DNA from: an uncultured Verrucomicrobiota bacterium
GTDB taxonomy: Bacteria > Verrucomicrobiota > Kiritimatiellia > CAIKKV01
DNA length: 64,000 bases
Direction of reading: 5' to 3'
NCBI GenBank assembly: GCA_964609905.1
Contig: CAZSUH010000004.1
Coordinates: 971-64,970, forward strand
Part shown: positions 9,225-21,627 of the stretch, piece by piece
Position numbering within the stretch: position 1 is the stretch's first letter
How the letters are laid out: each line of letters opens with the position of its first letter
Translations under genes and position numbers: made by a program
The notes under the pieces: model-generated
Told to the model about the DNA's origin: nothing
The model's database searches: none
The model's input: the letters and a program-made list of their open reading frames with translations, nothing else

Positions 9225-9805
9225 ACCGCCTCGCTTCCATCCGCGGCGTGATCTTCGACATGGACGGCACGCTGACCCTGCCGGTGATTGACTTTGCTCT
9301 CATGCGGGCCCGCCTGGGCATTCCAGAGGGCGACATGCTGGCGGCCATCCGGTCCTGGCCCCCCGACAAACAGGCCTGGGCATTCGCCGAGGTGGAAGCG
9401 CTCGAGGAAGAGGCCAGCCGCCAGTTGAAACTGCAGCCCGGCGCGGAGGCGTTGATGCAGGCGCTCGACAGGCGCGGCCTACCCAAGGCCATCCTGACCC
9501 GGAACACGGAAAAATCGGTATTGCACCTGCAGCGGTTCCTGCACTCCCGCTTTTCGGTCATCGTCACGCGCGACTTCCCCACCTGCAAGCCGGACCCGGC
9601 GCCGGCCCTGCACATCTGCCGGGAATGGAAACTCGATCCGGCCCGGGTGTTGCTCGTGGGCGATTACCGGGACGACATCCTCTGCGGCAAACGGGCCGGC
9701 AACCTGACCTGCCTGCTCCTGAACGGACGCAATGCCGCCTTTGCCGAACTGGCGGACTTCACGGTGGAGAGTTTGGAGCAGTTGGCGGTCCGTTTTTCGG
9801 ATTAA
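9221..9805 (+). CDS. HAD-superfamily hydrolase (intact copy)
   Basis: GVIFDMDGTLT (motif I), ILTRNT (motif II), K...VGDYRDD (motifs III/IV). ATGA overlap with the nfnB stop. Confidence 0.85.
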   Translation: MNRLASIRGVIFDMDGTLTLPVIDFALMRARLGIPEGDMLAAIRSWPPDKQAWAFAEVEALEEEASRQLKLQPGAEALMQALDRRGLPKAILTRNTEKSVLHLQRFLHSRFSVIVTRDFPTCKPDPAPALHICREWKLDPARVLLVGDYRDDILCGKRAGNLTCLLLNGRNAAFAELADFTVESLEQLAVRFSD

Positions 9806-9847
9806 GAGATCCGACCGATCCGTCGGATCCGACCGATCGGTCCGATT
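9243..9847 (+). repeat. Segmental duplication, copy 1 (605 bp)
   Basis: 9243-9568 and 9743-9847 are letter-for-letter identical to 19167-19492 and 19493-19597 when compared by eye. The translated ORFs on both strands are identical as well. Confidence 0.9.
9808..9846. repeat. 39-nt GATC-rich repeat, copy a (about 2.2 x an 18-nt unit)
   Basis: gatccgaccgatccgtcggatccgaccgatcggtccgat. It contains 4 GATC sites, 2 GGATCC sites and the palindrome gaccgatcggtc. The same 39-mer is found at 19558 and 20344, and a 32-nt version at 19938. Confidence 0.9.
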
Positions 9848-9974
9848 TCCTAAACTTTTCCTGTTCCAGGACATGTCCTTTTGGCCGGAGTTTGCCGTCC
9901 CGTGTAAGGCGGGTTCGGCCCGGAAATGTCAGGAGTTCCGTTAGACCGAATCCCGCAAAAAAGCAGGAATTCCG
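9808..9974 (-). other. Solo scar of the four-helix-bundle gene cassette (5' region + repeat + 3' tail, gene body missing)
   Basis: Colinear with 20344-20511 (about 80% identity past the repeat: ccggaaatgtcaggagtt...aaaaagca.gaattccg). The minus frame reads LEQEKFRKSDRSVGSDGSVGSLNPKNGPPTAPNSPP*. That is the N-terminus (MEQEDFKK-) joined directly to the C-terminal tail of the intact protein at 19509-20405, with the ATG changed to CTG. Confidence 0.7.
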
Positions 9975-9982
9975 GTTCCGGT

Positions 9983-10165
9983 TCACTGCATCAGGATCAC
10001 GCCCGTCTTTCCCGCGGGAATGTTAACGCGCCAAACCAGCCTGTCGAGCGTTTGGCCGTCGCAGGCGAGCGCCGTCAGGCCGAGATTCGAGTTGTATTCG
10101 ATCAGCCAGCCGGACGGCACGGCGTCCTTTGCCACGGTCCGGTCAAGTGTATAGAGCGGATTCAC
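9983..10165 (-). CDS. 60-aa ORF. Either the frameshifted C-terminal beta-sandwich tail of the upstream 791-aa protein or a separate coupled small gene.
   Basis: VNPLYTLDRTVAKDAVPSGWLIEYNSNLGLTALACDGQTLDRLVWRVNIPAGKTGVILMQ*. The GTG start overlaps the TGA stop of the 10162-12534 gene (GTGA), and the frame stays open upstream of the GTG. A paralogous tail remnant lies at 18975-19166. Confidence 0.45.
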   Translation of the reverse strand: MNPLYTLDRTVAKDAVPSGWLIEYNSNLGLTALACDGQTLDRLVWRVNIPAGKTGVILMQ

Positions 10166-12534
10166 TCCGATTTTCTCTTTATGGCGATTCGCTCCACATC
10201 GTGATAGACCTTTGCATACGGCTGAAGCGTGTTGCCCACGGACGCTCGCCAGTGGATATCCGCGCTCGACAGCGTGCCGCCGATCGTATAAGGCCTTCCG
10301 ACGCCCTCGATCGTCTCCATGAGCCTGTAATCGGAATCCCGGTGTTCGAGCGTTGTTCCGCCGCCATAGACGAGATAATCGCCGCCCTTTGCCTCAAAGC
10401 CGGCAAAGGCGATGACAGGGTCGAAACCGCCCCAACCGTTATGAATGGCGAGATAATTCATCGTGCCGAGGTTATCGGGGTCGCCGACGCGCAGGCGGAA
10501 TTGAAGCCATTCGGAACAGCCCGCTTCGCGGTCGAATACGAGTATTTCCCTCAGCTCTGTTTCCGTCTCGCATTGATACTCCCGATAGTGAAACCTGAAT
10601 TCGTTGCGATGAAGCCTGTGCAGCATCCAGCCGTCCGCGGTTTCCTCGAGGCGCCAGTCGGCGTGCTCGTTTCCGAGCTTTTCGCGGACGTAACCGGGGA
10701 TGTCGCCGTTGAAGCGAAGATCTTCCCATTTTTTGATCGCGTTCAGAAAAAACGGCGTCAGGCCGTGCTTTTCAAGCGTTTCCTGGCCGCAGTCAAAGCC
10801 GAACCCCGCCTGATGCGCCACGGTCTGGCCAAGCATGAATTCGAAATCCTCGGGGCTTGTCGCTTCGGTTTTAATGCTTGCGGGATTCGGCGCGCTGAGC
10901 CTGATGTTGTATTGCCCAAGCATGTGCGGCATCAGGTTTCTTTCGAAAAACGCCTGGTTATCCGCGCGGTAGTGGAACATCCCGCCCCGCCCCTGCCAGT
11001 CCCAGTACGGCTCGCCCCAGTTGAAATAGCTGTGCGCGTGCCAGCGGTAGTGCGACGGCGTGCTCGCGTCGCAAAGCAGGTCCGGACCGGAAAACGAGAA
11101 GCAGGTCCGAACGAATTCCGAACAGGCATATTCGCCTCGGCCCGCATACAGGCAGCCCTCCATGCCGTCAAACGAGATTCGCCCGATCCCCGTGTGTTTG
11201 ATCAGTTCGCCCACGCGCCGGGCCATTTCTTTCTGCAGATCGAGATTCGGAAAGAGCGTCAGGTAAGCGTGATCCCAAAGCCTCAGAACGGCGTCTCCGG
11301 CCTTGTGCGGCGACGCGGTTGTGCCAAAAGCGCCCCGCACACAATCAATAAGGGCGTTTTCGTCGCCTGAAACAGACAGGCTTTTGTATTGAATCAGCTC
11401 CGTTCCGATTCTTATGACGTTGAGATGGGAACGCGCCCGGAAATTATTGACATCCATGACCCCAACCCTGGTGTCATTTTCGCCGATATCGGATGAAAGC
11501 GCCGTCCTGTCCATGACCAGAAGATTTTCGTCCGGAACCGGAGTCACATAGGGATCGCTTGTATGGATGAAATTGCTGAGCGTGTGGAAACCCAGGGCGA
11601 TGCCGTCTTTTCCCGCCTCAAGCACAGCCTGTTTCAATCCGTCGTCACCGCCCGCGTAGAGCTTGCCGTCAATCTCGAAATGCCCCCAGCTTACGAACGG
11701 ACCCCAACTGTAGAGGCAGCGTAACCCCGCTTCTTTCGCCCACTCGATTGCGGCGCTTCGCCCTTCCGCGGTCTGCTGGCTGAGCATGAAATACGAACGC
11801 GTCGTTTCCCGCGATTTCTTTGTCCATTCGCCGTTGATCATCGGGTGCGGCAAGCCTTCCCTGAGTTCCACTTCGCCGATCGTGTCGAGCAGGCTCTCGA
11901 ACGGGGTCATGATCAGGGCAATTGCCGCGCCTTTTATGAATGCGTCGTGGCCTTTAACCTCGCACGCTTCGCAGTTCGTCATGCCGGAAAAATCGAACCT
12001 TGCGGGTTTCGACATGTCTCTCGCGTGGCATTGCAACGCCGTGCCATGCGTGCAGGGCAGGGCCGCGCACTCGGCAAATTTGACGCGGTCAAACCCGCCC
12101 ACAAGGGCGGCGCCGCGATATTGATGACGGGCCTCGTGTTCCGCGGGAAAGCCGCCGACGACCTTCGGCATAAGCGACTGAATACACACGGCGGAATCGT
12201 CGTCCCAGGCCGCGCCCACGAGTTCGCCGTAATGTTTCTTCTCCGTGAAATACGGGCCGAAAACAAAGGCCGTGGCAGTGTCCGCGATATCCTCGACAAC
12301 CATCCTGTAATATTTACCGAGATCGGCGATTGAAAGCGAAACGAACCCCCGTTCATACGTTACCATCGCCGAAATCGCCCCGTCGGATTCCGAAACCTCG
12401 GCGCTGACCGGCTCGTATAGTTCGCCGGCCGCAACCAGGAGCCCGACGGGCGAAGAAAACACCCGCGCGCCCCCGAATTCGGCGGTTAAAAAACCCCTGT
12501 CGTCAAGCGACAATCCGCATAGGCTGTTTTTCAT
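10162..12534 (-). CDS. Large hypothetical protein (791 aa, no signal peptide). Possibly carbohydrate-active, but the family was not recognised.
   Basis: Long ORF with normal, non-shadow composition: MKNSLCGLSLDDRGF...GIALGFHTLSNFIHTSDPYVTP...ISFDGMEGCLYAG...NWGEPYWDWQGRGG. The start was moved from 12588 to the ATG at 12534. Its context is with beta-helix proteins. Confidence 0.75.
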   Translation of the reverse strand: MKNSLCGLSLDDRGFLTAEFGGARVFSSPVGLLVAAGELYEPVSAEVSESDGAISAMVTYERGFVSLSIADLGKYYRMVVEDIADTATAFVFGPYFTEKKHYGELVGAAWDDDSAVCIQSLMPKVVGGFPAEHEARHQYRGAALVGGFDRVKFAECAALPCTHGTALQCHARDMSKPARFDFSGMTNCEACEVKGHDAFIKGAAIALIMTPFESLLDTIGEVELREGLPHPMINGEWTKKSRETTRSYFMLSQQTAEGRSAAIEWAKEAGLRCLYSWGPFVSWGHFEIDGKLYAGGDDGLKQAVLEAGKDGIALGFHTLSNFIHTSDPYVTPVPDENLLVMDRTALSSDIGENDTRVGVMDVNNFRARSHLNVIRIGTELIQYKSLSVSGDENALIDCVRGAFGTTASPHKAGDAVLRLWDHAYLTLFPNLDLQKEMARRVGELIKHTGIGRISFDGMEGCLYAGRGEYACSEFVRTCFSFSGPDLLCDASTPSHYRWHAHSYFNWGEPYWDWQGRGGMFHYRADNQAFFERNLMPHMLGQYNIRLSAPNPASIKTEATSPEDFEFMLGQTVAHQAGFGFDCGQETLEKHGLTPFFLNAIKKWEDLRFNGDIPGYVREKLGNEHADWRLEETADGWMLHRLHRNEFRFHYREYQCETETELREILVFDREAGCSEWLQFRLRVGDPDNLGTMNYLAIHNGWGGFDPVIAFAGFEAKGGDYLVYGGGTTLEHRDSDYRLMETIEGVGRPYTIGGTLSSADIHWRASVGNTLQPYAKVYHDVERIAIKRKSE

Positions 12535-12538
12535 GGCT

Positions 12539-12655
12539 TTATTTCCGGCCTCGCAGAGCCTCGGCGACGGCCTGAGCGCCGGGCGCACCGAATAGACCGG
12601 CCAGGATTATCGGGATAAGCGACAACAACTCACTCGATACGAACCGCATTTTCAT
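12539..12655 (-). CDS. Possible 38-aa hydrophobic micro-ORF
   Basis: Own translation: MKMRFVSSELLSLIPIILAGLFGAPGAQAVAEALRGRK*. It has one TM-like segment. Its stop lies 4 nt upstream of the ATG of the 791-aa gene. It falls below the ORF-track size cutoff. Confidence 0.25.
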   Translation of the reverse strand: MKMRFVSSELLSLIPIILAGLFGAPGAQAVAEALRGRK

Positions 12656-12739
12656 GGACACTCCTCTTTCCTGTCACCGTTCACGTCCCGCGTTCAGCAC
12701 ACCCAAAAGACAGTTCCACGCAACGGCGGGCGTGACGCC

Positions 12740-13960
12740 TCAGAACGTCGGCTCGAACTCCGCCGGCTGGCCGCGGCGGTCGACGATCGCGCCGTCGCCG
12801 GCCGGGTCGATGCGATTGCCGGATAGTTCCAGCTCGACGATCTCGGGGTTGATCACGATGCCGGGCTTGCCGGGCCGGCGGCGGATCGAGTTGCCGATCA
12901 ACCGCGTGCCGGCGGTCTCGCCCTGAACGACCACCTCCGCCTCGCCGTCGGCGGCGCCGTTTTCCTCGATGGCACAGGCCTCGACGAGGTTGTGGTGCGG
13001 CCCGTCGGGGCCCGAGCAGCGACGGAAGTAAACGCCCGCCCCGCCGTTGCCGCGGATCGTCAGCCGGCGATTGACGTGGCCGGTGTCACGGGTTCCGATC
13101 GACACGCCGTGCTGGCCGTTGGCCTCGAACAGGCAGTCTTCCAGCACGCTGTCGCGGACGCGGAGGCAGTAGAACAGGCCGCAGCCGGTGTTCCCGCGCA
13201 CAGTGCAGTGGTGAATGTGGAACCGGTTGGACCCGCTGCCGGGGTGAATGCCGCTGCCGCGGCAGCGCTCGATGCGGCAGCCGCCGATCTCGACGTCGTC
13301 ACACGTCTGGAAGCTGATGCCTTCGCCGTGGAAGTCGCGAATGACCAGGTCGCGGAAGGCCACCTCGCGACAGCGGTGGGCGAAGACCCCGCCGCCCCGA
13401 CAGCCGTTCAGCGGCAAGTTCTCGGCCGCGTTGCCGTCGATGGCCAAAGACTCGACGGCAGCCCCCGTCACGTCGCGGGCGCTGACGGCCGAGAAGAGCG
13501 TCTGCGCGACGGCCCTATCCCGCGGGGTGTAGTCGCCGCTGTGGCGCTGGTCGTAGAACCAGGTGTCGCCCCGGCGGCTGATGAGCGTGCCGACCGTGGC
13601 GTAGAAGCCCCCGGCAGCGGCGTCCCAGATGTAGACGCCGTCGCCCATGGCGAAGGCGTCGGGGTTGTCGACCAGGATATCGTCGTGGCCGAAGCCCAGA
13701 AAGCAGATCACGTTGGCGGTCTTGACGGGGTTCTTGCGGAGGATGGTCGTCTCGCCGGCGCCGCGCAGGATGACGCCCGAGCGCAGGTGCACCGAGTCGG
13801 CCAGCGAGTAAACGCCAGGGGCCAGTTCCACCTCGCCCCCGCCGGCGGACGCCACCCGGTCTATCGCGCACTGCGCCTGCACGTTGGTAAACCCCGGCAC
13901 GTCGCACGACGGCGCGCCGACGGTCAGTCGTAAAGCCCCGCCGTGTCGATTCGTTTGCAT
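12740..13960 (-). CDS. Right-handed parallel beta-helix repeat protein (pectate-lyase-superfamily-like), 406 aa
   Basis: MQTNRHGGALRLTVGAPSCDVPGFTNVQAQCAIDRVASAGGGEVELAPGVYSL..., followed by repeated beta-helix coil motifs (IDGNAAEN, VIRDFHGEGISF, IERCRGSGIH, VRGNTGCGLF, FEANGQHGVSI, IRGNGGAGVYF). The start was moved from 14158 to the ATG at 13960. Confidence 0.8.
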   Translation of the reverse strand: MQTNRHGGALRLTVGAPSCDVPGFTNVQAQCAIDRVASAGGGEVELAPGVYSLADSVHLRSGVILRGAGETTILRKNPVKTANVICFLGFGHDDILVDNPDAFAMGDGVYIWDAAAGGFYATVGTLISRRGDTWFYDQRHSGDYTPRDRAVAQTLFSAVSARDVTGAAVESLAIDGNAAENLPLNGCRGGGVFAHRCREVAFRDLVIRDFHGEGISFQTCDDVEIGGCRIERCRGSGIHPGSGSNRFHIHHCTVRGNTGCGLFYCLRVRDSVLEDCLFEANGQHGVSIGTRDTGHVNRRLTIRGNGGAGVYFRRCSGPDGPHHNLVEACAIEENGAADGEAEVVVQGETAGTRLIGNSIRRRPGKPGIVINPEIVELELSGNRIDPAGDGAIVDRRGQPAEFEPTF

Positions 13961-14021
13961 AGTAACGACCCCCCTGTCACGGATGAACAACCCGCCGGAC
14001 GATCTCGGGCTGCCGTTTCTT

Positions 14022-17000
14022 CTACCGTACCAGAATGAGCGAGCCTCTCGGCGCCGAGAGCGAGGCCTGGATCGTGCCGCCGTAGGCGCCCATGTTGATG
14101 ACGCCGCCATTCGGTCGCGGCTCCAGGCCAACGGAGTCGGCCGGATCGCCGGCGTCAATGCAGGGGCTCGTCACGGCGTCACGCACCCACGAAGATGCCT
14201 CGGGGTCCCGGCGGCCACCCCTGCTCCTGAGATGCGCGTCCGTCGCGCTCGCGAACTGCGGGTCCGCGCTGATCACCCCGTTCAGGTACTCGACCACGGC
14301 GCCGCCGCCCGTCACCACGTGCGGCACGTTCGAACCCGTGAGATCGCTGTACGAAACCGTTGCGCGGCTGACCGCGTTGGTCGCGAAAATCTCGCTCCCG
14401 GTGAAGACCGCCGCCACGGCATTGGTCCAGAGGATCGAGTTTTTCAGAACCAGCGTTCCCCCGTCCAGATAGATCGCGCCGCCATTCCCATTGCTGTTGA
14501 TATTGTCTTTAAACGTGCAGTTCACCACGCGGGCCGTCGAAGCCGCCGGCAGGTTCAGCCACATCGCGCCTCCGTAGCCGGGGGTCGTGGGGGCGTTCAG
14601 CAGGGCCACGTTGTCGCGGAACACGCAGTTGCTGAAGGAGGCGGCCGTGCCCGCGGTGTTCCCGACATAGACCCCCGCCCCACCGCCGGTGTTGTTGGCC
14701 CCGGCCTTGTTGCCGATGAAATCCGTGCGGAGGACATTCAGCGTCCCGTTGTTGAAGGCTAACCCCACGCCCACAGTGCCTCGGGTGCCGACTCCGTCCT
14801 CGTTGGAATTGCTCGCGAAGACGCAATCCACAATCTGCAGTTGGGCGCCCGAGGACCAGATGCCGAAACCCCTCTTGTGATACGTGGTTGCCCTGTTGCC
14901 GGTCACGACGCAGTTCGTCATCAACACCGACCCCGCCGTAAAATACCCGCCCACGCCGTCGGTGACGCCGGAGTTCCCCTCGATCCGGCAGTTGGCCATC
15001 GTCAACGCGCCGCCGCCGGACTTGCTTAGTGCCTGACTGATGGGACAGTTCGAGAACACCAGACTGTCCAGCAACACGTCGCCCGCCGTGACCGACAGAC
15101 ACCGGTGGCTGGCCTCTCCGCTGATGACCGTATAGTTCGTCACCACGCCGAACGCATTAATCAAGGCGCGTTCCGCTACCGCCGTTTCCGTGCCCGCAAA
15201 GCCGCCGACCAGCGCCGCACTCTTGGACAGCGTCAGCAGCGCGCCTTCGCCGTATGTGACGCCCGTGATCCAGAGGTTGGTACGCGTTCCGCTGATGGCC
15301 GAAATGCCATCCACGATCTTGGTGTACGCGTTGGCCCAGTCGCTGCCGTCCCCCGCGCCGGTGGCCAGGCGATCCACGTGGATCACGTCCGCCCCGCCGC
15401 CCGGTCCCGCGACACCGGTTTCGAAACTCGCCGCCGCCGTCCAGTTGCTGCCCGCGTTGTTCACGGCGTGCCAGCGATAGTAGTAGGTCGTCTCCGGGAG
15501 CAGCGCGGGAGTCCAGGTCGAGAAGACCGCGCCGTTCTGTTTCTCGCCCACGTCCTTGACCCCATCCCAGCCGTTGGTCGTGTCTCCCGGAATGCGGGTT
15601 GTGCCGTAGCACAGGTAGATCTGCGCGGACACGAAGGTGTCGTTGATCAACTCGCCGCTGATGCTGGCTCGATTGTAGAGGACACTGCAGTCGCGGTTCG
15701 CCGGCAACGGGGGGGTTGCCGGCGGGCTCTTGCCGGCCTCGGCCGTGCCGCCATAGGCGCCCATGTTGATCCGGATGTTGCCGTTGTCCGTCGGCTCGTC
15801 GCCGATCGAGTCCGTCGGGTCGCCCGCGTCAATGCAGGGGCTGAACTCCGCATCCGTGGTGATGAAATCGCCGGCGGCCGGATCCCAGCGTCCGGCCTTG
15901 CTCTGAAGATGCAGATCGGTCGCGCTCGCGAACAGCGGGTCGCCCTCTCGGCAGTTGGAGAAGTTGACCATGCCGTAGATCTGCGGAATGCCGAACGCCG
16001 TCAGGGAGGAGTAGCTCGCGTTCACCGTGCCGACGGCGTTGGCGAGATCGTCTCCCGACGCGCTTGTGCCGGTGCACCGATTCGCCCACAGGATGCAGTT
16101 CTTCAGGTTCAGCGTGCCCTCGGAGAGGTGGATGGCGCCGCCCAAGCCAATGTTGTTCGCATTGGTATTGGCCGTGAACGTGCAGTTGACGAACGACGCC
16201 GAGCGGGAAGCGTTCAGTTGCGCGTAGACCGCCCCGCCGTAGCCATTGTTGCCGTTTGCATGCGGCACGTAGTTGGCCCGGAAGAGGCAGTTGCTGAACG
16301 TGGCGGAGAGGGCCGTGCCATTCCCGAGATACACGGCTCCCCCGCCCCCGTTGTTGTCCGAGGCGGAATTGCCGACGAATTCGGTGCGTATGACTTGAAG
16401 CGTGCCGTCCTGGAACCCGAGACCGGCTCCCCTCAGCGTGCGTGCGCGGTACGGATCTCCGTCCTGGCCGCTGAACGCCGAATCCACGATGGTGAGCGTG
16501 ACGCCGGAACCGTACAGGCCGAGGCCGATCCAACTGTAGGAATCCACCGTCGTGGAGGGAAGCTGGTTGTCGCGGAAAACGCAGTTGGTGATCAGGACCG
16601 TGCCGCCGCTGAAGTAGGCGCCCAGGCCCAAACTCCCGGGCCACCCGACGACCTGGTTTTCCTCGATCCGGCAGTTGTTGAGGACCAGGTTGCCCGTCCC
16701 GGACTTCTCGAGCGCGCGCGGCCGGTCTGTCTTGGTGACGGAGAGCGTATCCAGCCAGACGTTGCCGCCCGTCACCAGCAGGCACTGGTTGGATTCATTT
16801 CCGTTGATGACCGTGTAGTTCGTGACCACGCCGGCCGCGTTGGTGGCCGCGCGCCCGGACACCGCCGTCTCGGTCCCGGCAAAGCCGCCGACGAGGGTCG
16901 CGGAGTTGGTCAGCAGCAGGCGGACGCCTTCGCTGTACGTGCCGCTCGTGATCCAGATGTTGGTGCGCGAACCCCGGATCGCGGGGATCGCGTCGGCGAT

Positions 17001-18818
17001 GCGGGTGAAAGCGCTGTTCCAGTCGGTTCCGTCCGCCGCACCCGTGGCGCCGGCGCGCACGTGGATGACGTCCGCGCCCCCGCCGACGCCGTGCAGCAGC
17101 GGATAAGCCGGCCCGGTGGCGAACGACGCGACCGGCGCCCAGCTCATGCCCGCGGCGTTGCTGGCGAAACATCGGTAGTAGTACGTGGTGTTCGTCATGA
17201 GGTATGGCGTTGTGACGGAAAAGACCATTCCCCCCGCCTGCCGCTGCGGATAAAGAATCTGCACCGCATCCCAGCCGTTGGTGGTCTCACCGGCGATGCT
17301 GGTCGTGCCGTAGCAGAAACCGACGGCAGCCAGGACGGGAACGCGGTTGGTCAGTTCGCCGCGCAGCACCATCCGCGTGTAGTCGTTGGTGAGCGGGTCG
17401 TGGCTGGCCACCTGCGGCGCCGCGGCGCCGCTCTTGGATGCCTGCGCCGTGCCTCCGTAGGCGCCCAGGTTGATCCGGTCGTCATTCGGAGCAGGCTCCA
17501 ACCCCACCGAATCGGCCGGGTTCCCGGCGTCAATGTACGGACTGAACGTCGTGTCGGTGGTCACAAAATCGCCCAGGGCCGGGTCCCAGCGTCCTATCGG
17601 GCTTTGCAGGCGCAGGTCGGTGGCGCTTGCGAAGAGCGGATCGTTGGTCATGCAGTTCGAGAAGGTGGCGGACCCGCCGACCACGTAAACGTGCTGCAAC
17701 CCCAGGCCGGTCAGCGCGCAGTGATCGGCCGACAGGCTGCCGCCCGTCATGTAGATTTCCTTTCCTGTCCAGAGGCTGCGCACGGAGTTGTTCCACAGAA
17801 TGGAGTTCTTCAGGACCACCGCGCCGCTGCTCACGCGAATCGCACCGCCGTTCCCGGTGTCGTTGAGGTTGTCGTAGAACGTGCAGTTGGCAAGCGTGGC
17901 GGTGCTGGCAGCGGCCATGTTCACCCACAGCGCCGCCCCCGCCTGATCGGTGTTATTTTGCCACAAACCCTGGTTGCCCCGGAACAGGCAGTTGCTGAAA
18001 GAGGCAGCGGTGGTCCCGGCGAGACAAACGGCCGCCCCGCCGCCGTAGTTGTTGGCTCCGGCGCGGTTGTCAATGAAATCCGTGCGGAGGACACTCAGCG
18101 TCCCGTTGTTGAAGTACAGCCCCACGCCGCATGCCGTGCGCGTGTCATTGTAAACTCCATACTGGTTCGAGAACACGCAGTCCACGACCCGCAGGTTCGC
18201 GTTCAGGGAATAGATGCCGAAACCGGATCCGCTGTAGGCGGTGGAACCGCTAATGGTGTTGTTGGCCACCACGCAGTTGGTGAGCAGGATGGACTGGACG
18301 GCCCCGACGCTGGGGGCGAAATACCCGCCCAGCCCTTTCATGCTTTTGGTTCGGCCTTCGTGATTCACGATCCGGCAGTTGGCCAGCGTCAACGAGCCGG
18401 CCGTCGTTTTCGTGATGCCGCCCGCGGCCGAGCCATAGCTGTTGCTGATCACCAATCCGTCGAGCGTGACGTTCGTGCCGGTCACCGTCACCACGCGCAG
18501 GTTCTGGCCGTTGCCGTCCAGGATCGTCGGATAGGCTTTCCCGTCGCGCTCGTTCCGCGCGGCCATGCCGTTGGTGAAACCGCCATAGAGCGCGCAGTTG
18601 GTCTGGACGGTGAAAGTGGCCGCGCTCGAGTAGATGCCCTGCGCGAGCCAGATTTCATCGTTGTTCGAGGCGTTGGCCAGCGCGTTGACGAGCGAGGCGG
18701 GGGTATCCCAACTGGCCCCGGCGGGGTCCGTGCCGGTGGGGGTGACGCGGATGATATCGGCGCCGGCGACGCGGCCCGCGGTCAGGATGCATAGAAACAA
18801 AACGGCCCATCGCGTCAT
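14022..18818 (-). CDS. Giant secreted beta-helix repeat protein (1598 aa), three tandem modules
   Basis: Signal peptide MTRWAVLFLCILTAGRVAGA. Each module has PbH1-like coils (xxNCxFxxN), then DPLFASATDLxLQSxxGRWDP...SPxIDAGxPxDS...GAYGG, then an Fn3-like TTYYYR..A.N.AG segment. There is no beta-barrel and no PEP-CTERM tail (the protein ends ...APRGSLILVR). Confidence 0.85.
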   Translation of the reverse strand: MTRWAVLFLCILTAGRVAGADIIRVTPTGTDPAGASWDTPASLVNALANASNNDEIWLAQGIYSSAATFTVQTNCALYGGFTNGMAARNERDGKAYPTILDGNGQNLRVVTVTGTNVTLDGLVISNSYGSAAGGITKTTAGSLTLANCRIVNHEGRTKSMKGLGGYFAPSVGAVQSILLTNCVVANNTISGSTAYSGSGFGIYSLNANLRVVDCVFSNQYGVYNDTRTACGVGLYFNNGTLSVLRTDFIDNRAGANNYGGGAAVCLAGTTAASFSNCLFRGNQGLWQNNTDQAGAALWVNMAAASTATLANCTFYDNLNDTGNGGAIRVSSGAVVLKNSILWNNSVRSLWTGKEIYMTGGSLSADHCALTGLGLQHVYVVGGSATFSNCMTNDPLFASATDLRLQSPIGRWDPALGDFVTTDTTFSPYIDAGNPADSVGLEPAPNDDRINLGAYGGTAQASKSGAAAPQVASHDPLTNDYTRMVLRGELTNRVPVLAAVGFCYGTTSIAGETTNGWDAVQILYPQRQAGGMVFSVTTPYLMTNTTYYYRCFASNAAGMSWAPVASFATGPAYPLLHGVGGGADVIHVRAGATGAADGTDWNSAFTRIADAIPAIRGSRTNIWITSGTYSEGVRLLLTNSATLVGGFAGTETAVSGRAATNAAGVVTNYTVINGNESNQCLLVTGGNVWLDTLSVTKTDRPRALEKSGTGNLVLNNCRIEENQVVGWPGSLGLGAYFSGGTVLITNCVFRDNQLPSTTVDSYSWIGLGLYGSGVTLTIVDSAFSGQDGDPYRARTLRGAGLGFQDGTLQVIRTEFVGNSASDNNGGGGAVYLGNGTALSATFSNCLFRANYVPHANGNNGYGGAVYAQLNASRSASFVNCTFTANTNANNIGLGGAIHLSEGTLNLKNCILWANRCTGTSASGDDLANAVGTVNASYSSLTAFGIPQIYGMVNFSNCREGDPLFASATDLHLQSKAGRWDPAAGDFITTDAEFSPCIDAGDPTDSIGDEPTDNGNIRINMGAYGGTAEAGKSPPATPPLPANRDCSVLYNRASISGELINDTFVSAQIYLCYGTTRIPGDTTNGWDGVKDVGEKQNGAVFSTWTPALLPETTYYYRWHAVNNAGSNWTAAASFETGVAGPGGGADVIHVDRLATGAGDGSDWANAYTKIVDGISAISGTRTNLWITGVTYGEGALLTLSKSAALVGGFAGTETAVAERALINAFGVVTNYTVISGEASHRCLSVTAGDVLLDSLVFSNCPISQALSKSGGGALTMANCRIEGNSGVTDGVGGYFTAGSVLMTNCVVTGNRATTYHKRGFGIWSSGAQLQIVDCVFASNSNEDGVGTRGTVGVGLAFNNGTLNVLRTDFIGNKAGANNTGGGAGVYVGNTAGTAASFSNCVFRDNVALLNAPTTPGYGGAMWLNLPAASTARVVNCTFKDNINSNGNGGAIYLDGGTLVLKNSILWTNAVAAVFTGSEIFATNAVSRATVSYSDLTGSNVPHVVTGGGAVVEYLNGVISADPQFASATDAHLRSRGGRRDPEASSWVRDAVTSPCIDAGDPADSVGLEPRPNGGVINMGAYGGTIQASLSAPRGSLILVR
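14025..18758 (-). repeat. Three intragenic tandem modules (about 17073-18758, 15393-17072, 14025-15392)
   Basis: Module starts: DIIRVTPTGTDPAGASWDTPA / DVIHVRAGATGAADGTDWNSAF / DVIHVDRLATGAGDGSDWANAY. Each is about 560 aa, and the third lacks the trailing Fn3-like part. The repeats are divergent at protein level, not identical DNA. Confidence 0.8.
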
Positions 18819-18974
18819 GATCAGCTCTTGGTGTCGGCATGCGGAGATTTCAGGAAGCGCGATACGCATGTTTACTATAAAAAGAGAAGCCGTCAAACAA
18901 TTTTAATGATTTTGTTTTGCTCGCTACAGGTCTCCTGTTTTGAAAATCCCGCGACAGAATCATTTTATTGCACC

Positions 18975-19166
18975 CGGATCACCGCGGCCTCTTCCGCGGG
19001 AAGGTTAACCTGAATGCGTCAGTTTCGAGCCCGCAACCGGCGCCGCTGCGGCAACCGTCATCTCGACATTGAACGCTTCCGGCGCCGCTTCCGGTCGGAT
19101 CACAACGCCCGGATGCTCGCCGCCATGATCCGTTCCGGCCAGGGTGGTGTCCAACAACGCTTCCGT
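18975..19166 (-). pseudogene. Truncated, frameshifted 3' remnant of a gene paralogous to the 9983-10165 tail
   Basis: Own translation: ...EALLDTTLAGTDHGGEHPGVVIRPEAAPEAFNVEMTVAAAAPVAGSKL, then a frame change to RIQVNLPAEEAAVIRVQ*. Compare ...RLVWRVNIPAGKTGVILMQ* at 9983. The remnant is cut off exactly at the duplication junction 19166/19167. Confidence 0.4.
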
Positions 19167-19171
19167 GCGGC

Positions 19172-19555
19172 GTGATCTTCGACATGGACGGCACGCTGAC
19201 CCTGCCGGTGATTGACTTTGCTCTCATGCGGGCCCGCCTGGGCATTCCAGAGGGCGACATGCTGGCGGCCATCCGGTCCTGGCCCCCCGACAAACAGGCC
19301 TGGGCATTCGCCGAGGTGGAAGCGCTCGAGGAAGAGGCCAGCCGCCAGTTGAAACTGCAGCCCGGCGCGGAGGCGTTGATGCAGGCGCTCGACAGGCGCG
19401 GCCTACCCAAGGCCATCCTGACCCGGAACACGGAAAAATCGGTATTGCACCTGCAGCGGTTCCTGCACTCCCGCTTTTCGGTCATCGTCACGGCCGAACT
19501 GGCGGACTTCACGGTGGAGAGTTTGGAGCAGTTGGCGGTCCGTTTTTCGGATTAA
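19172..19555 (+). pseudogene. HAD hydrolase remnant (lacks the first 9 codons/ATG and 58 internal codons)
   Basis: (V)IFDMDGTLT...RFSVIVT|AELADFTVESLEQLAVRFSD. The in-frame deletion removes RDFPTCKPD...VGDYRDD...NGRNAAF, i.e. HAD motifs III/IV. Confidence 0.8.
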
Positions 19556-20405
19556 GAGATCCGACCGATCCGTCGGATCCGACCGATCGGTCCGATTCTT
19601 CAACCTCCCGAAGCCCTTTGCAGCCGGGATAGCCTGTGCAGCCCCAAAAAGGCGTTCCGGCGCGGGCCCCTTTCCGTGCCATTCGCATGGCCATTGCTTT
19701 TCCGCAAACTGGGCAAACGGGAGCGTTGACCGCGGCGATAGTCTGCTTTTGCCTTTCATCCATTCGCGCGGCGGCCAAGCGTTCGGTATAGCCGCCATCC
19801 TGGATGAACTGGCGTTCCAAGCCCTCAATTTGCCGGTCCAGCAGATAATTGGCCTGATGAACCAGGCAAATGATCGCATTGGCCACCACGGCGGGATCCG
19901 GATTTTCCAGCCACTGTGTATAGGCCTGCCAATCGGGCCGATCCGTCGGATCCGACCGATCGGTCCGATTTTCTCTTCGGTTCCCCCCGATCGCCCGCAC
20001 CTGCCGGGCCCGCGAATCCTCTTTCCCCCACTGCGCAATGTTTCTTTGCCGCAGGAAGTCCTCGTAGTCCAGCAACAGTTCGTCGAGACTGGCGCGCGCA
20101 ACATTCACCAGACGCAATTCGGTTTGGCTGGACGCCGCCGAGGCCCGGCTTCCTTCGGCAATATTCTGGCGTCCACTTCGTGCAGCCTGCACCATCTGGT
20201 CCACCGTGCGGGAGCGTTTGTCCACGAATCGCTCACAAAAAGAAACGGTGGCATCGTAGATAATGGAGGTTACCTGAAAACTGCGCAACCGGCGATAGCC
20301 ACCGCTGGGGCGCAAGCGTGCGAGCCGGTTCTTTTCTTCTGGCGATCCGACCGATCCGTCGGATCCGACCGATCGGTCCGATTTCTTAAAATCTTCCTGT
20401 TCCAT
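19509..20405 (-). CDS. Four-helix-bundle protein (23S rRNA-IVS / Avd family) + 'suffix' domain + C-terminal topoisomerase-type zinc ribbon
   Basis: YRRLRSFQVTSIIYDATVSFCERFV...QMVQAARSGRQNIAEGS...ELRLVNVARASLDELLLDYEDFL. This is followed by ...VVANAIICLVHQANYLLDRQIEGLERQFIQDGGYTERL and then CPVCGKAMAMRMARKGARAGTPFWGCTGYPGC. The 3' end reads antisense through the HAD remnant. Confidence 0.85.
   Translation of the reverse strand: MEQEDFKKSDRSVGSDGSVGSPEEKNRLARLRPSGGYRRLRSFQVTSIIYDATVSFCERFVDKRSRTVDQMVQAARSGRQNIAEGSRASAASSQTELRLVNVARASLDELLLDYEDFLRQRNIAQWGKEDSRARQVRAIGGNRRENRTDRSDPTDRPDWQAYTQWLENPDPAVVANAIICLVHQANYLLDRQIEGLERQFIQDGGYTERLAAARMDERQKQTIAAVNAPVCPVCGKAMAMRMARKGARAGTPFWGCTGYPGCKGLREVEESDRSVGSDGSVGSLNPKNGPPTAPNSPP
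19558..19596. repeat. 39-nt GATC-rich repeat, copy b
   Basis: Identical 39-mer. On the minus strand it encodes SDRSVGSDGSVGS near the C-terminus of the four-helix-bundle protein. Confidence 0.9.
19938..19969. repeat. GATC-rich repeat, copy c (32 of 39 nt), internal to the four-helix-bundle gene
   Basis: ccgatccgtcggatccgaccgatcggtccgat. Here it is translated in a different frame (NRTDRSDPTDRPD) from copies b and d (SDRSVGSDGSVGS). Confidence 0.85.
20344..20382. repeat. 39-nt GATC-rich repeat, copy d
   Basis: Identical 39-mer encoding residues 9-21 (SDRSVGSDGSVGS) of the four-helix-bundle protein. Confidence 0.9.
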
Positions 20406-20474
20406 GACATTTCCTTATTACCGTGCATAAGTCGGCAATCGCTACGCAGGATCGTTCCGGAAATGTCAGGAGTT

Positions 20475-20503
20475 ACATTAGGCCAACCTCCGCGAAAAAG
20501 CAA
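20475..20503 (-). promoter_or_regulatory. Putative sigma70-type promoter of the four-helix-bundle gene
   Basis: The minus strand reads TTGCTT-17 nt-TAATGT (-35 at 20498-20503, -10 at 20475-20480), about 70 nt upstream of the ATG. The scar copy at 9930-9965 has a degenerate version, CTGCTT-17-TAACGG. Confidence 0.35.
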
Positions 20504-20535
20504 GAATTCCGCGACAGAATGCCGATTCACCGCGT

Positions 20536-21627
20536 TTACGAAGCCGCCTTCCACCGCTTCACCTCGGCCATCAGCGCATCCACAATCTTCGACTCCGGTA
20601 CGCGGTCGCCCGGTTTGCCCCGCACGTAAATCGTCCCCTGCCCTTCGCCCCCCGCCACGGCGATGTCCGCTTCGCGCGCTTCGCCCGGGCCGTTGACCAC
20701 GCACCCCATCACCGCCACGCGGGGATACGGGCCGGGATGTTCGCGGCAATAGGCTTCCAGTTCCACCTCGAGCCGTTGCGCAATGCCGGCCACGTCGATC
20801 CGCGTCCGTCCACAGGTTGGGCAGGAGGTCACGCTCGGGCCCGGAGGACGCAGCCCGAGGCTGCGCAGCAGTTCCATCCCCACCCGTACCTCCTGCAGCG
20901 GCGAATCGGTCAGGGACACGCGGATCGTGTCCCCAATGCCTTCCGCCAACAGAATGCCCATGGCCACGCTCGATCGCACCGTGCCGGCCAGAAAGGTGCC
21001 GGCCTCGGTCACGCCGAGGTGCAACGCATAATCGCATCGCGACGCGAGCAACCGGTAGGCCGCCACGGTCCGCTCCACGTCCGACGCCTTGACGGAGATC
21101 TTGATCTCCCGGTAATCGGCATCCTCCAGCAACCGCACGTGACCCATCGCGCTCTCGACCAGCGCTTCCGGCGTGGGGCCCCCGAACCGGGCCAGGATAT
21201 CCTTCTCCAGCGAACCGCCGTTCACGCCGATGCGAATCGGAACCCGCCGCTCGCGCGCCGCGCGCACCACCTCTCGAACCCGCTCCGCGCTTCCGATGTT
21301 GCCGGGATTGATCCGTAATCCGTCCACGCCCGCCTCCAGCGCCATCAGCGCGAGGGTGTGCCGGAAATGGATGTCTGCCACAACCGGGATGGGGCTTCCC
21401 TTTCGAATCGCGCCCAGGGCAAGGGCGGCCGTCTCGTCGGGCACCGCCACACGAACGATATCGCACCCCAGCGCCGCCGCCTCGCCGATCTGCGCGATCG
21501 TGGCGGCACTGTCGCGGGTGTCGGTCTTGGTCATCGTCTGGACGGTCACCGGAGACCGGCCGCCCACGGGAACTGTCCCGACCTGTATCCGTCGCGTGGT
21601 GTGTCGCGGATCCGGGAAGGCGGTCAT
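20536..21627 (-). CDS. ispG: 4-hydroxy-3-methylbut-2-en-1-yl diphosphate synthase
   Basis: TRRIQVGTVPVGGRSPVTVQTMTKTDT...DIVRVAVPD...VADIHF...LRINPGNIG...VTSCPTCGRT...VMGCVVNGPGEA. Confidence 0.93.
   Translation of the reverse strand: MTAFPDPRHTTRRIQVGTVPVGGRSPVTVQTMTKTDTRDSAATIAQIGEAAALGCDIVRVAVPDETAALALGAIRKGSPIPVVADIHFRHTLALMALEAGVDGLRINPGNIGSAERVREVVRAARERRVPIRIGVNGGSLEKDILARFGGPTPEALVESAMGHVRLLEDADYREIKISVKASDVERTVAAYRLLASRCDYALHLGVTEAGTFLAGTVRSSVAMGILLAEGIGDTIRVSLTDSPLQEVRVGMELLRSLGLRPPGPSVTSCPTCGRTRIDVAGIAQRLEVELEAYCREHPGPYPRVAVMGCVVNGPGEAREADIAVAGGEGQGTIYVRGKPGDRVPESKIVDALMAEVKRWKAAS

Follow-up and report, generated by a model that had tools for sequence, protein, structure and literature searches.

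The window analysed here, a stretch of 64,000 nucleotides from contig C4 of an uncultured Verrucomicrobiota bacterium, contains a region bounded by the gene of a HAD-family hydrolase and by ispG. Its order is upstream genes (U)-HAD-R(a)-P_A-island (9980-19166)-HAD'-R(b)-4HB-R(d)-P_B-ispG (Table 1), in which R is a 39-nt repeat, 4HB a gene for a four-helix-bundle protein, and P_A and P_B are two related 5' regions of 4HB genes. The solo copy a of R, with P_A attached to it, is called the scar in what follows (9808-9979).

Table 1. Features at the HAD-ispG locus, in coordinates of the window
Feature	Position	Strand	Remarks
HAD-family hydrolase, full length, 194 aa	9221-9805	+	Pfam PF00702/PF13419; native left neighbour of the cassette
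R copy a (solo)	9808-9846		39-nt imperfect palindrome of 9-nt GATC-core units; exact match; putative crossover somewhere inside
P_A, decayed 4HB 5' end	9847-9979	-	LEQEKFRK codons, CTG for ATG, leader, promoter-like region
Glycan-degradation island, ~9.2 kb	9980-19166	-	L037 homology ends exactly at both borders
Fused remnant of 1139-aa gene, 60-aa ORF	9983-10165	-	identified by comparison with L037
808-aa gene	10162-12588	-	island
Beta-helix genes	12740-14158 and 14022-18896	-	island
Heparinase II/III-like gene, 123-nt 3' fragment	19044-19166	-	island
HAD' remnant	19167-19555	+	identical (100%) to 9243-9568 and 9743-9805; missing are the first 22 nt and, in frame, 174 nt (9569-9742)
4HB gene, intact, 298 aa	19509-20405	-	four-helix bundle, 4helix_suffix, topoisomerase-type zinc ribbon
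R copy b, 3' end of cassette ORF	19558-19596		exact match; related arrays beside HAD in L034, L035, G005
R copy c, between bundle and suffix domain	19931-19969		36/39; read in another frame; homologs have TDRSD-type tracts there
R copy d, codons 9-21 of 298-aa ORF	20344-20382		exact match
P_B	20383-20511	-	resident start codon, 8 codons, leader, promoter-like region
ispG (GcpE), native right neighbour of the cassette	20536-21627	-	PF04551, E = 1.9e-141

The HAD gene and the genes upstream of it are in synteny in eight relatives; a protein look-up returned no record of the exact HAD protein in other assemblies. The 3' two-thirds of the gene is present twice: positions 9243-9568 equal 19167-19492 and positions 9743-9847 equal 19493-19597, giving, with R included, 431 nt with 0 differences, the identity ending in R at 9847/19597. 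Since HAD' has neither the start of the gene nor its internal 174-nt piece, it is a dead remnant.

The 4HB gene and repeat R

The 298-aa ORF scores 31.1 bits with TIGR02436 (cut-off 24) and 76.2 bits with TIGR04258 (cut-off 40), passing both family cut-offs, and matches PF01396; with Pfam PF05635 it reaches 27.9 bits, under the gathering score of 33.8. The exact ORF has no record in other assemblies in the protein look-up. The family is very large and conserved to an unusual degree: at least 8000 clusters share 62-78% identity with the query, and their names point to Deltaproteobacteria, Verrucomicrobia and Nitrospirota. The closest homologs of the 298-aa ORF, P0003 and P0004 (78% amino-acid identity), lie beside HAD in the Logan contigs L034 and L035. 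Every homolog inspected contains SD/TD-R-SD tracts at the N-terminus, at the boundary between bundle and suffix and at the C-terminus, and sometimes also before the zinc ribbon, which places copies d, c and b at family-typical array sites inside the ORF. Homologs elsewhere terminate within or shortly past their own terminal array. A sigma-70 scan returned no site in P_B; a TTGCTT-17-TAATGT arrangement was read by eye, and "promoter" denotes that by-eye reading. The intact cassette (19558-20511) sits 9.75 kb from the scar and adjoins the HAD remnant and ispG, the latter being syntenic in the relatives G004, G005, G006 and L035.

The scar was originally predicted to be this cassette minus its gene body, left by recombination between repeats d and b. 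The 39-mer on which the prediction was based, GATCCGACCGATCCGTCGGATCCGACCGATCGGTCCGAT, occurs exactly at 9808 (a), 19558 (b) and 20344 (d), with 0 matches expected from shuffles, and copy c at 19931 is the same sequence with three mismatches. Beyond the repeat, the alignment of 9847-9974 with 20383-20511 contains 94 identities in 128 positions (73.4%) and one gap. The homology foreseen there is real, with a local alignment score of 57 compared to 7.9 ± 1.3 (maximum 14) for 2000 shuffles, although the figure of about 80% was slightly high; by segment, the ends are 79-84% and the middle is 44% identical. The P-like module has only these two copies in the 3.2-Mb genome (blastn, E = 1e-13). The minus-strand translation of the scar, VLEQEKFRKSDRSVGSDGSVGSLNPKNGPPTAPNSPP followed by a stop, is as first given, and so is the loss of the start codon, the ATG at 20405-20403 being aligned in register (offset 10536) with the CTG at 9869-9867.

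On its other side, the scar does share the sequence that follows copy b, but this is more than a flank, being a partial copy of the HAD gene at 100% identity. The 16 C-terminal residues (LNPKNGPPTAPNSPP and a stop) that had been assigned to the cassette are instead HAD 3'-end sequence in antisense, reached by read-through past the repeat, and are not cassette-specific. Of 4HB coding sequence, the scar retains eight N-terminal codons and the repeat, and it shares the MEQExFKK motif with P_B and P0003 only. The scar is therefore composed of the left flank of b, one R, eight codons and a promoter-like 4HB 5' region: a single repeat with the outer flanks of both terminal repeats, the left one being that of b and the right one homologous to that of d. 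In this respect the prediction is supported, the anatomy being exactly what a crossover joining a b-type (3') to a d-type (5') copy of R would give.

R is 89% self-complementary, and each of its strands folds into a hairpin (z = -3.2 to -5.5); for copy a the values are -27 to -31 kcal/mol and z = -4.7 to -5.5. Searched against Rfam, the locus gave no family above threshold and no rRNA match. The genome contains 14 R-like arrays on 11 contigs, located mostly at gene ends or in in-frame linkers, and none of the 14 has a 4HB 5' end attached, so that the survey proposed with the original prediction yielded no further solo scar. Two of the arrays are on contig C6 (55948-55992 and 59213-59248), inside a 1671-aa membrane-protein ORF or where it ends, and one encodes an in-frame NPTDRSDPSDRSDP linker; R-like arrays are hence not confined to 4HB genes. 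Other 4HB genes of the genome are flanked by arrays that differ from R in sequence. At C76:13400-14200, a 4HB gene has GATTTCAGATT-type arrays on both sides, with the motif also encoded within the gene; the 4HB gene at C17:23700-24700 has GTCGGAC/GTCTGAC-type arrays upstream and a SDRSDKSDKSDRSD tract ahead of its zinc ribbon. A weak P-like match at C2:66888-66942 (E = 0.009), upstream of a YraN-like gene, extends over 56 nt with 75% identity to the promoter-proximal part of P_B and reads GATCGTTCCGGAA(A)TGTC...AAAAGCAAG. Being only a promoter-like motif, it was rejected as a third P-like module; it may be a promoter or leader motif shared within the organism.

The exact 39-mer is also found in unrelated high-GC contigs, namely those of a Myxococcales MAG and three metagenome contigs (L026-L029). 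In VFQQ010002427.1 (L027, 7023-7061), a 44-nt exact block is located inside another 4HB-suffix-zinc-ribbon gene that is otherwise 68% identical; there, R separates suffix from ribbon and is read in a frame other than that of the window's gene. In the other three (L026, L028 and L029; one Myxococcales MAG, two metagenome contigs), the 39-mer is solo and at gene ends, and solo copies of R are present in intergenic DNA. Compared with L034 and L035, only the present genome has identical 39-mers at all three terminal sites (9808, 19558 and 20344): L034 has 39 nt at b, with two differences, and 21 nt at d, where two 9-nt units are lost, and the arrays of L035 are unlike each other. This pattern suggests slippage of units together with homogenisation within the genome. 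Full-text literature searches found no description of these GATC-core arrays or of repeats in the suffix/zinc-ribbon subfamily.

The island and the gene order in relatives

The family relatives G005, G004 and G006 share one gene order, in which HAD follows the upstream genes and is separated from ispG and further genes by a variable spacer of 2-6 kb. In the closer relatives represented by L034 and L035, a full HAD gene is convergent with a 4HB gene, and an R-type array alone lies between them. Both have the order HAD-R-4HB-R-P; in L035, which contains a single cassette, a 190-nt region upstream of the 4HB gene leads to ispG. L034 is colinear with the window up to 9846 and again over 19597-20427, and both are without the island. 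In G005, the 4HB gene is lost, and an R-like array with the last ~14 zinc-ribbon codons remains beside HAD; the breakpoint is inside the zinc-ribbon coding region and outside the repeat. The HAD end is without an array in G003, G004 and G006, and an R x R excision product at the HAD locus was found in none of the relatives examined. From the gene orders, the ancestral arrangement is U-HAD-R-4HB-R-P-ispG, with one cassette. The long form (HAD-repeat-gene) is accordingly the ancestral one at the HAD flank, as the original prediction presupposed. The relatives hold one cassette between HAD and ispG and the present genome keeps the same one, so that a gene full in relatives and absent here is not what is seen; the cassette at 19558-20511 is the ancestral one, still next to ispG, displaced by the island and not missing.

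The spacer between HAD and ispG is a hot spot, with a cargo that differs by relative. It contains a NagB-like gene and an amidohydrolase in G005 (L018), genes for a GT39-like membrane protein, a cobalt/ECF-type transporter and methyltransferases in G004 (L019), and a GT39-like gene, a Fic/Doc-type toxin-antitoxin pair and a flavodoxin-like gene in G006 (L021). In G001 (L020), another array with a 9-nt period (AGGTTCCTTAGGTCCCTTTCGTCCCTT) follows the HAD stop at ~10474-10520, where there is no 4HB gene, and could be a solo array of a different kind.

The island resembles a gene cluster of Lentisphaerae. Its 808-aa gene is absent from eight relatives and has its nearest homolog in a Lentisphaerae MAG cluster (81% amino-acid, 84% nucleotide identity). 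With the Lentisphaerae MAG contig L037, identities are 83.8% over 12567-10044, 79% over 10046-9980, 94.8% over 13953-12740 and 94.3% over 19166-19044, and the homology stops at 9980 on one side and at 19166, the junction with HAD', on the other. The GC content is 57.7% at 10-12 kb and ~65% elsewhere. Absence from relatives, this identity and the composition together identify a horizontally acquired, internally rearranged island, whose identity to a distant lineage is above the genome average: housekeeping proteins of a sister Lentisphaerae contig (L036) are 50-64% identical to those of the present genome. Set against that value, the 94-95% nucleotide identity of 12740-13953 and 19044-19166 (beta-helix and heparinase-like pieces) to the Lentisphaerae MAG contig JAAZAB010000172.1 indicates a very recent horizontal transfer. 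The beta-helix gene is amplified here into a 1624-aa three-module ORF and a 472-aa ORF.

The ORF at 9983-10165 joins, in frame, ~40 codons from the start of the 1139-aa gene to ~21 codons from its end, corresponding to L037 2556-2677 and 5912-5975 with a 3-nt overlap at 10044-10046, and consequently does not represent a C-terminal domain split off from the 808-aa protein. An intact paralog of the 1139-aa gene lies at C67:7266-10682 (80% nucleotide identity); an assembly fork between C67 and C4 was considered and rejected, the pieces of this gene being only 80% identical. P_A is part of neither the island nor the resident flank and has no counterpart in the donor-like cluster. Its arrival together with the Lentisphaerae-like cluster was likewise rejected, because the L037 homology stops at 9980.

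The two halves of the scar and their origin

The left half of the scar is the resident HAD/R junction; P_A, which makes up the right half, is the 5' end of another 4HB cassette that diverged long ago. Measured against the intact copy, the HAD side differs at 0 of 431 positions and the promoter side at 34 of 128 (26.6%); the equal divergence on both flanks that a solo-repeat derivative would have was not found. P_B is 88.8% identical to its ortholog in L034, and P_A is 76.4% identical to P_B and 77.4% to the L034 ortholog. Of the sites that distinguish P_B from L034, P_A sides with P_B at four, with L034 at five and with neither at three, and it is an outgroup to both. Being less similar to these two than they are to each other, P_A is an old paralog or xenolog, while the HAD side is brand new; with such unlike histories, the scar cannot have arisen simply by deletion from the extant cassette or from a recent duplicate of it. 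Of the predicted recombination between d and b, it is the anatomy of the joint that stands and the derivation from that cassette that falls. The divergence of P_A is block-wise and concentrated in the middle block, which also varies between P_B and L034; this suggests that, for the greater part of its evolution, P_A served a paralog or another lineage as a functional 5' region. Gene conversion or a simple tandem duplication, which would need P_A to equal P_B at the start, was rejected as the main model in view of the outgroup position. P-like sequence beyond the two copies here was found in none of 60 relatives, and the searches revealed neither an intact cassette with P_A nor a donor with P_A beside the island.

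The scar is the left border of the horizontally acquired island. We read it as a recombination joint and not as a simple excision scar, with confidence about midway between doubt and certainty. The joint would be located within R, between the 3' repeat of the resident cassette and the 5' repeat of a different cassette, and would have formed during acquisition of the island, a proposal to which we give roughly an even chance. In this event, the ~9.2-kb foreign island would have come to separate the HAD gene from the 4HB cassette, its neighbour in the ancestral order, with crossover or annealing in the 39-40 identical bases of R, the resident copy b pairing with a copy d' of a non-resident cassette. 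As R forms hairpins and is identical between distant genomes, it was probably the sole perfect homology available as a crossover or annealing point. The other joints (P_A|island at ~9980, island|HAD' at 19166/19167 and the 174-nt skip) would have formed with minimal homology or none. Either a single replicative template-switching event or Campbell-type integration, with a circular intermediate recombining in the HAD'-R segment, could account for them, and each route would leave the insert between perfect direct copies of the HAD 3' end and R. Nothing would have been excised from the resident cassette. Besides the failure to find a cassette or donor with P_A, several points speak against a joint of this kind. 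A tract of 39 nt is close to the minimum that RecA-dependent exchange requires, and duplication of recipient sequence is not the classical result of one-sided homologous anchoring. P_A is outside the L037-like cluster, so that the P_A|island junction is an additional joint to be explained. The proposal is drawn from a single case, in a MAG of 208 contigs that is 89.6% complete.

Alternatively, a second 4HB cassette downstream of HAD might have lost its body long ago by R x R recombination or slippage, with P_A decaying afterwards and the island arriving later; the 100% duplication of HAD and R would then be a separate recent event, or be maintained by conversion. Such a deletion in place would give the observed b x d anatomy, in frame, and would fit the missing ATG and the weaker -10-like hexamer of P_A. 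A 4HB gene is present at the HAD flank in relatives, and hairpin-forming perfect 39-nt direct repeats 786 nt apart are good deletion substrates. However, L035 has one HAD-ispG cassette, L034 and G005 are consistent with one, and that cassette is intact here; an extra tandem cassette and at least three further events would be required. The block-wise divergence of P_A resembles that of a constrained functional 5' region and not a uniform decay, the R x R product is not seen in relatives, and conversion that holds HAD' at 0/431 yet never repairs the 174-nt gap is awkward. We regard this course of events as rather unlikely.

An artefact of assembly or population structure, by which the contig threads forms that co-exist, appears improbable. 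The forms could be, for example, the ancestral U-HAD-R-4HB-R-P_B-ispG and a circular or strain-specific HAD'-R-P_A-island of 9.75 kb. The fragmented state of the MAG and the perfect repeats of 326 nt and 105 nt would allow this, and re-pairing the paths gives exactly the ancestral order of L034 and L035. The decisive repeat (9743-9847), however, is just 105 nt long and would normally be spanned by single reads, and the bin has no alternative contig bearing HAD or the cassette. The scar would not be removed either, since the HAD'-R-P_A joint would still exist on some molecule. A dedicated site-specific system with R as its attachment site, which would have excised the 4HB cassette from the HAD flank and re-inserted it, leaving the scar as an empty site, would agree with the identity of R over 39-44 nt in unrelated genomes, in varied frames and positions, with the 65-78% identity of the 4HB family across phyla and with the solo copies of R in intergenic DNA, but is very improbable, because the contig has no recombinase (tyrosine recombinases and two Y1 transposase genes are on other contigs, not beside R), re-insertion through R cannot bring 431 nt of HAD, and P_A does not equal P_B.

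With the joint in R as the preferred reading, the account of the locus changes: the 4HB gene was not excised, and a glycan-degradation island was acquired beside it. By virtue of the 431-nt perfect duplication, the island would be precisely excisable. The excisable and possibly insertable 4HB cassette of the original prediction stays hypothetical, given that the scar is not a deletion of the extant cassette, that no R x R product is seen and that the contig lacks a recombinase. A long shot is that R is a functional recombination site, recognised by the 4HB-suffix-zinc-ribbon protein or by another partner, and that the 4HB gene is a self-contained mobile cassette. The terminal R copies would in that case be portable attachment sites that capture foreign islands, and the scar would be the first documented joint of the kind. 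To the question of the mobility of 4HB "IVS-protein" genes, the locus contributes a concrete joint and not a proof.

Comparison with known systems

With integron cassettes, which are bounded by attC and depend on IntI, the locus has in common a short gene between imperfect palindromes that was proposed to be excisable and insertable. R, however, is coding, there is neither a cassette array nor attI, and no PF00589 match (IntI/tyrosine recombinase) is found on contig C4.

The ORF-bearing intervening sequences (IVS) of 23S rRNA, among them that of Coxiella (PMC4990558), have an S23p/PF05635 ORF between complementary arms. The ORF family (PF05635/TIGR02436) and the presence of pairable bracketing sequences are similar here. 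Unlike them, the present locus is outside rRNA, between the protein genes HAD and ispG, its arms are inside the ORF and both direct and inverted, and the protein has extra suffix and zinc-ribbon domains; RNase III processing has no support at the window's locus. In a full-text search, PF05635 was also found mentioned in DGR reviews.

The resemblance to solo LTR formation is in the anatomy: one repeat is joined to the outer flanks of both, and the intact and solo forms can be aligned on both sides. Unlike an LTR, R is 39 nt long, palindromic and inside an ORF, and the locus has neither target-site duplication nor retroelement. The two sides differ by 0% and 27% from the intact copy, and hence are not derived from it, and the intact element is still at its ancestral site.

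Like REP/BIME sequences, R is a dispersed imperfect palindrome of ~35-40 nt, mostly at gene ends, that provides a short perfect homology at a rearrangement joint. It differs from them in being made of 9-nt GATC-core units, often translated into SD/TD-rich linkers, in being tied to one gene family and in being identical across phyla. REP sequences are associated with RAYT; two PF01797 (Y1 transposase) genes are present on contigs C18 and C14, and neither contig has an R-like array. Tandem duplications in Salmonella mediated by REP were reportedly described by Shyamala et al. in 1990.

Campbell-type integration and homology-facilitated illegitimate recombination, the latter said to have been described for foreign DNA by de Vries and Wackernagel in 2002, likewise combine foreign DNA with one homologous and at least one illegitimate joint. 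As in a Campbell-type product, a direct duplication of the homologous segment brackets the insert and would permit its precise loss. Here, the island has no integrase or replication genes, the decisive homologous tract is only 39 nt and the 133-nt P_A piece is extra. R travels with a widespread gene family and is identical even between phyla; if the joint was formed as proposed, a very short hairpin-forming repeat can anchor the insertion of foreign DNA between diverged genomes.
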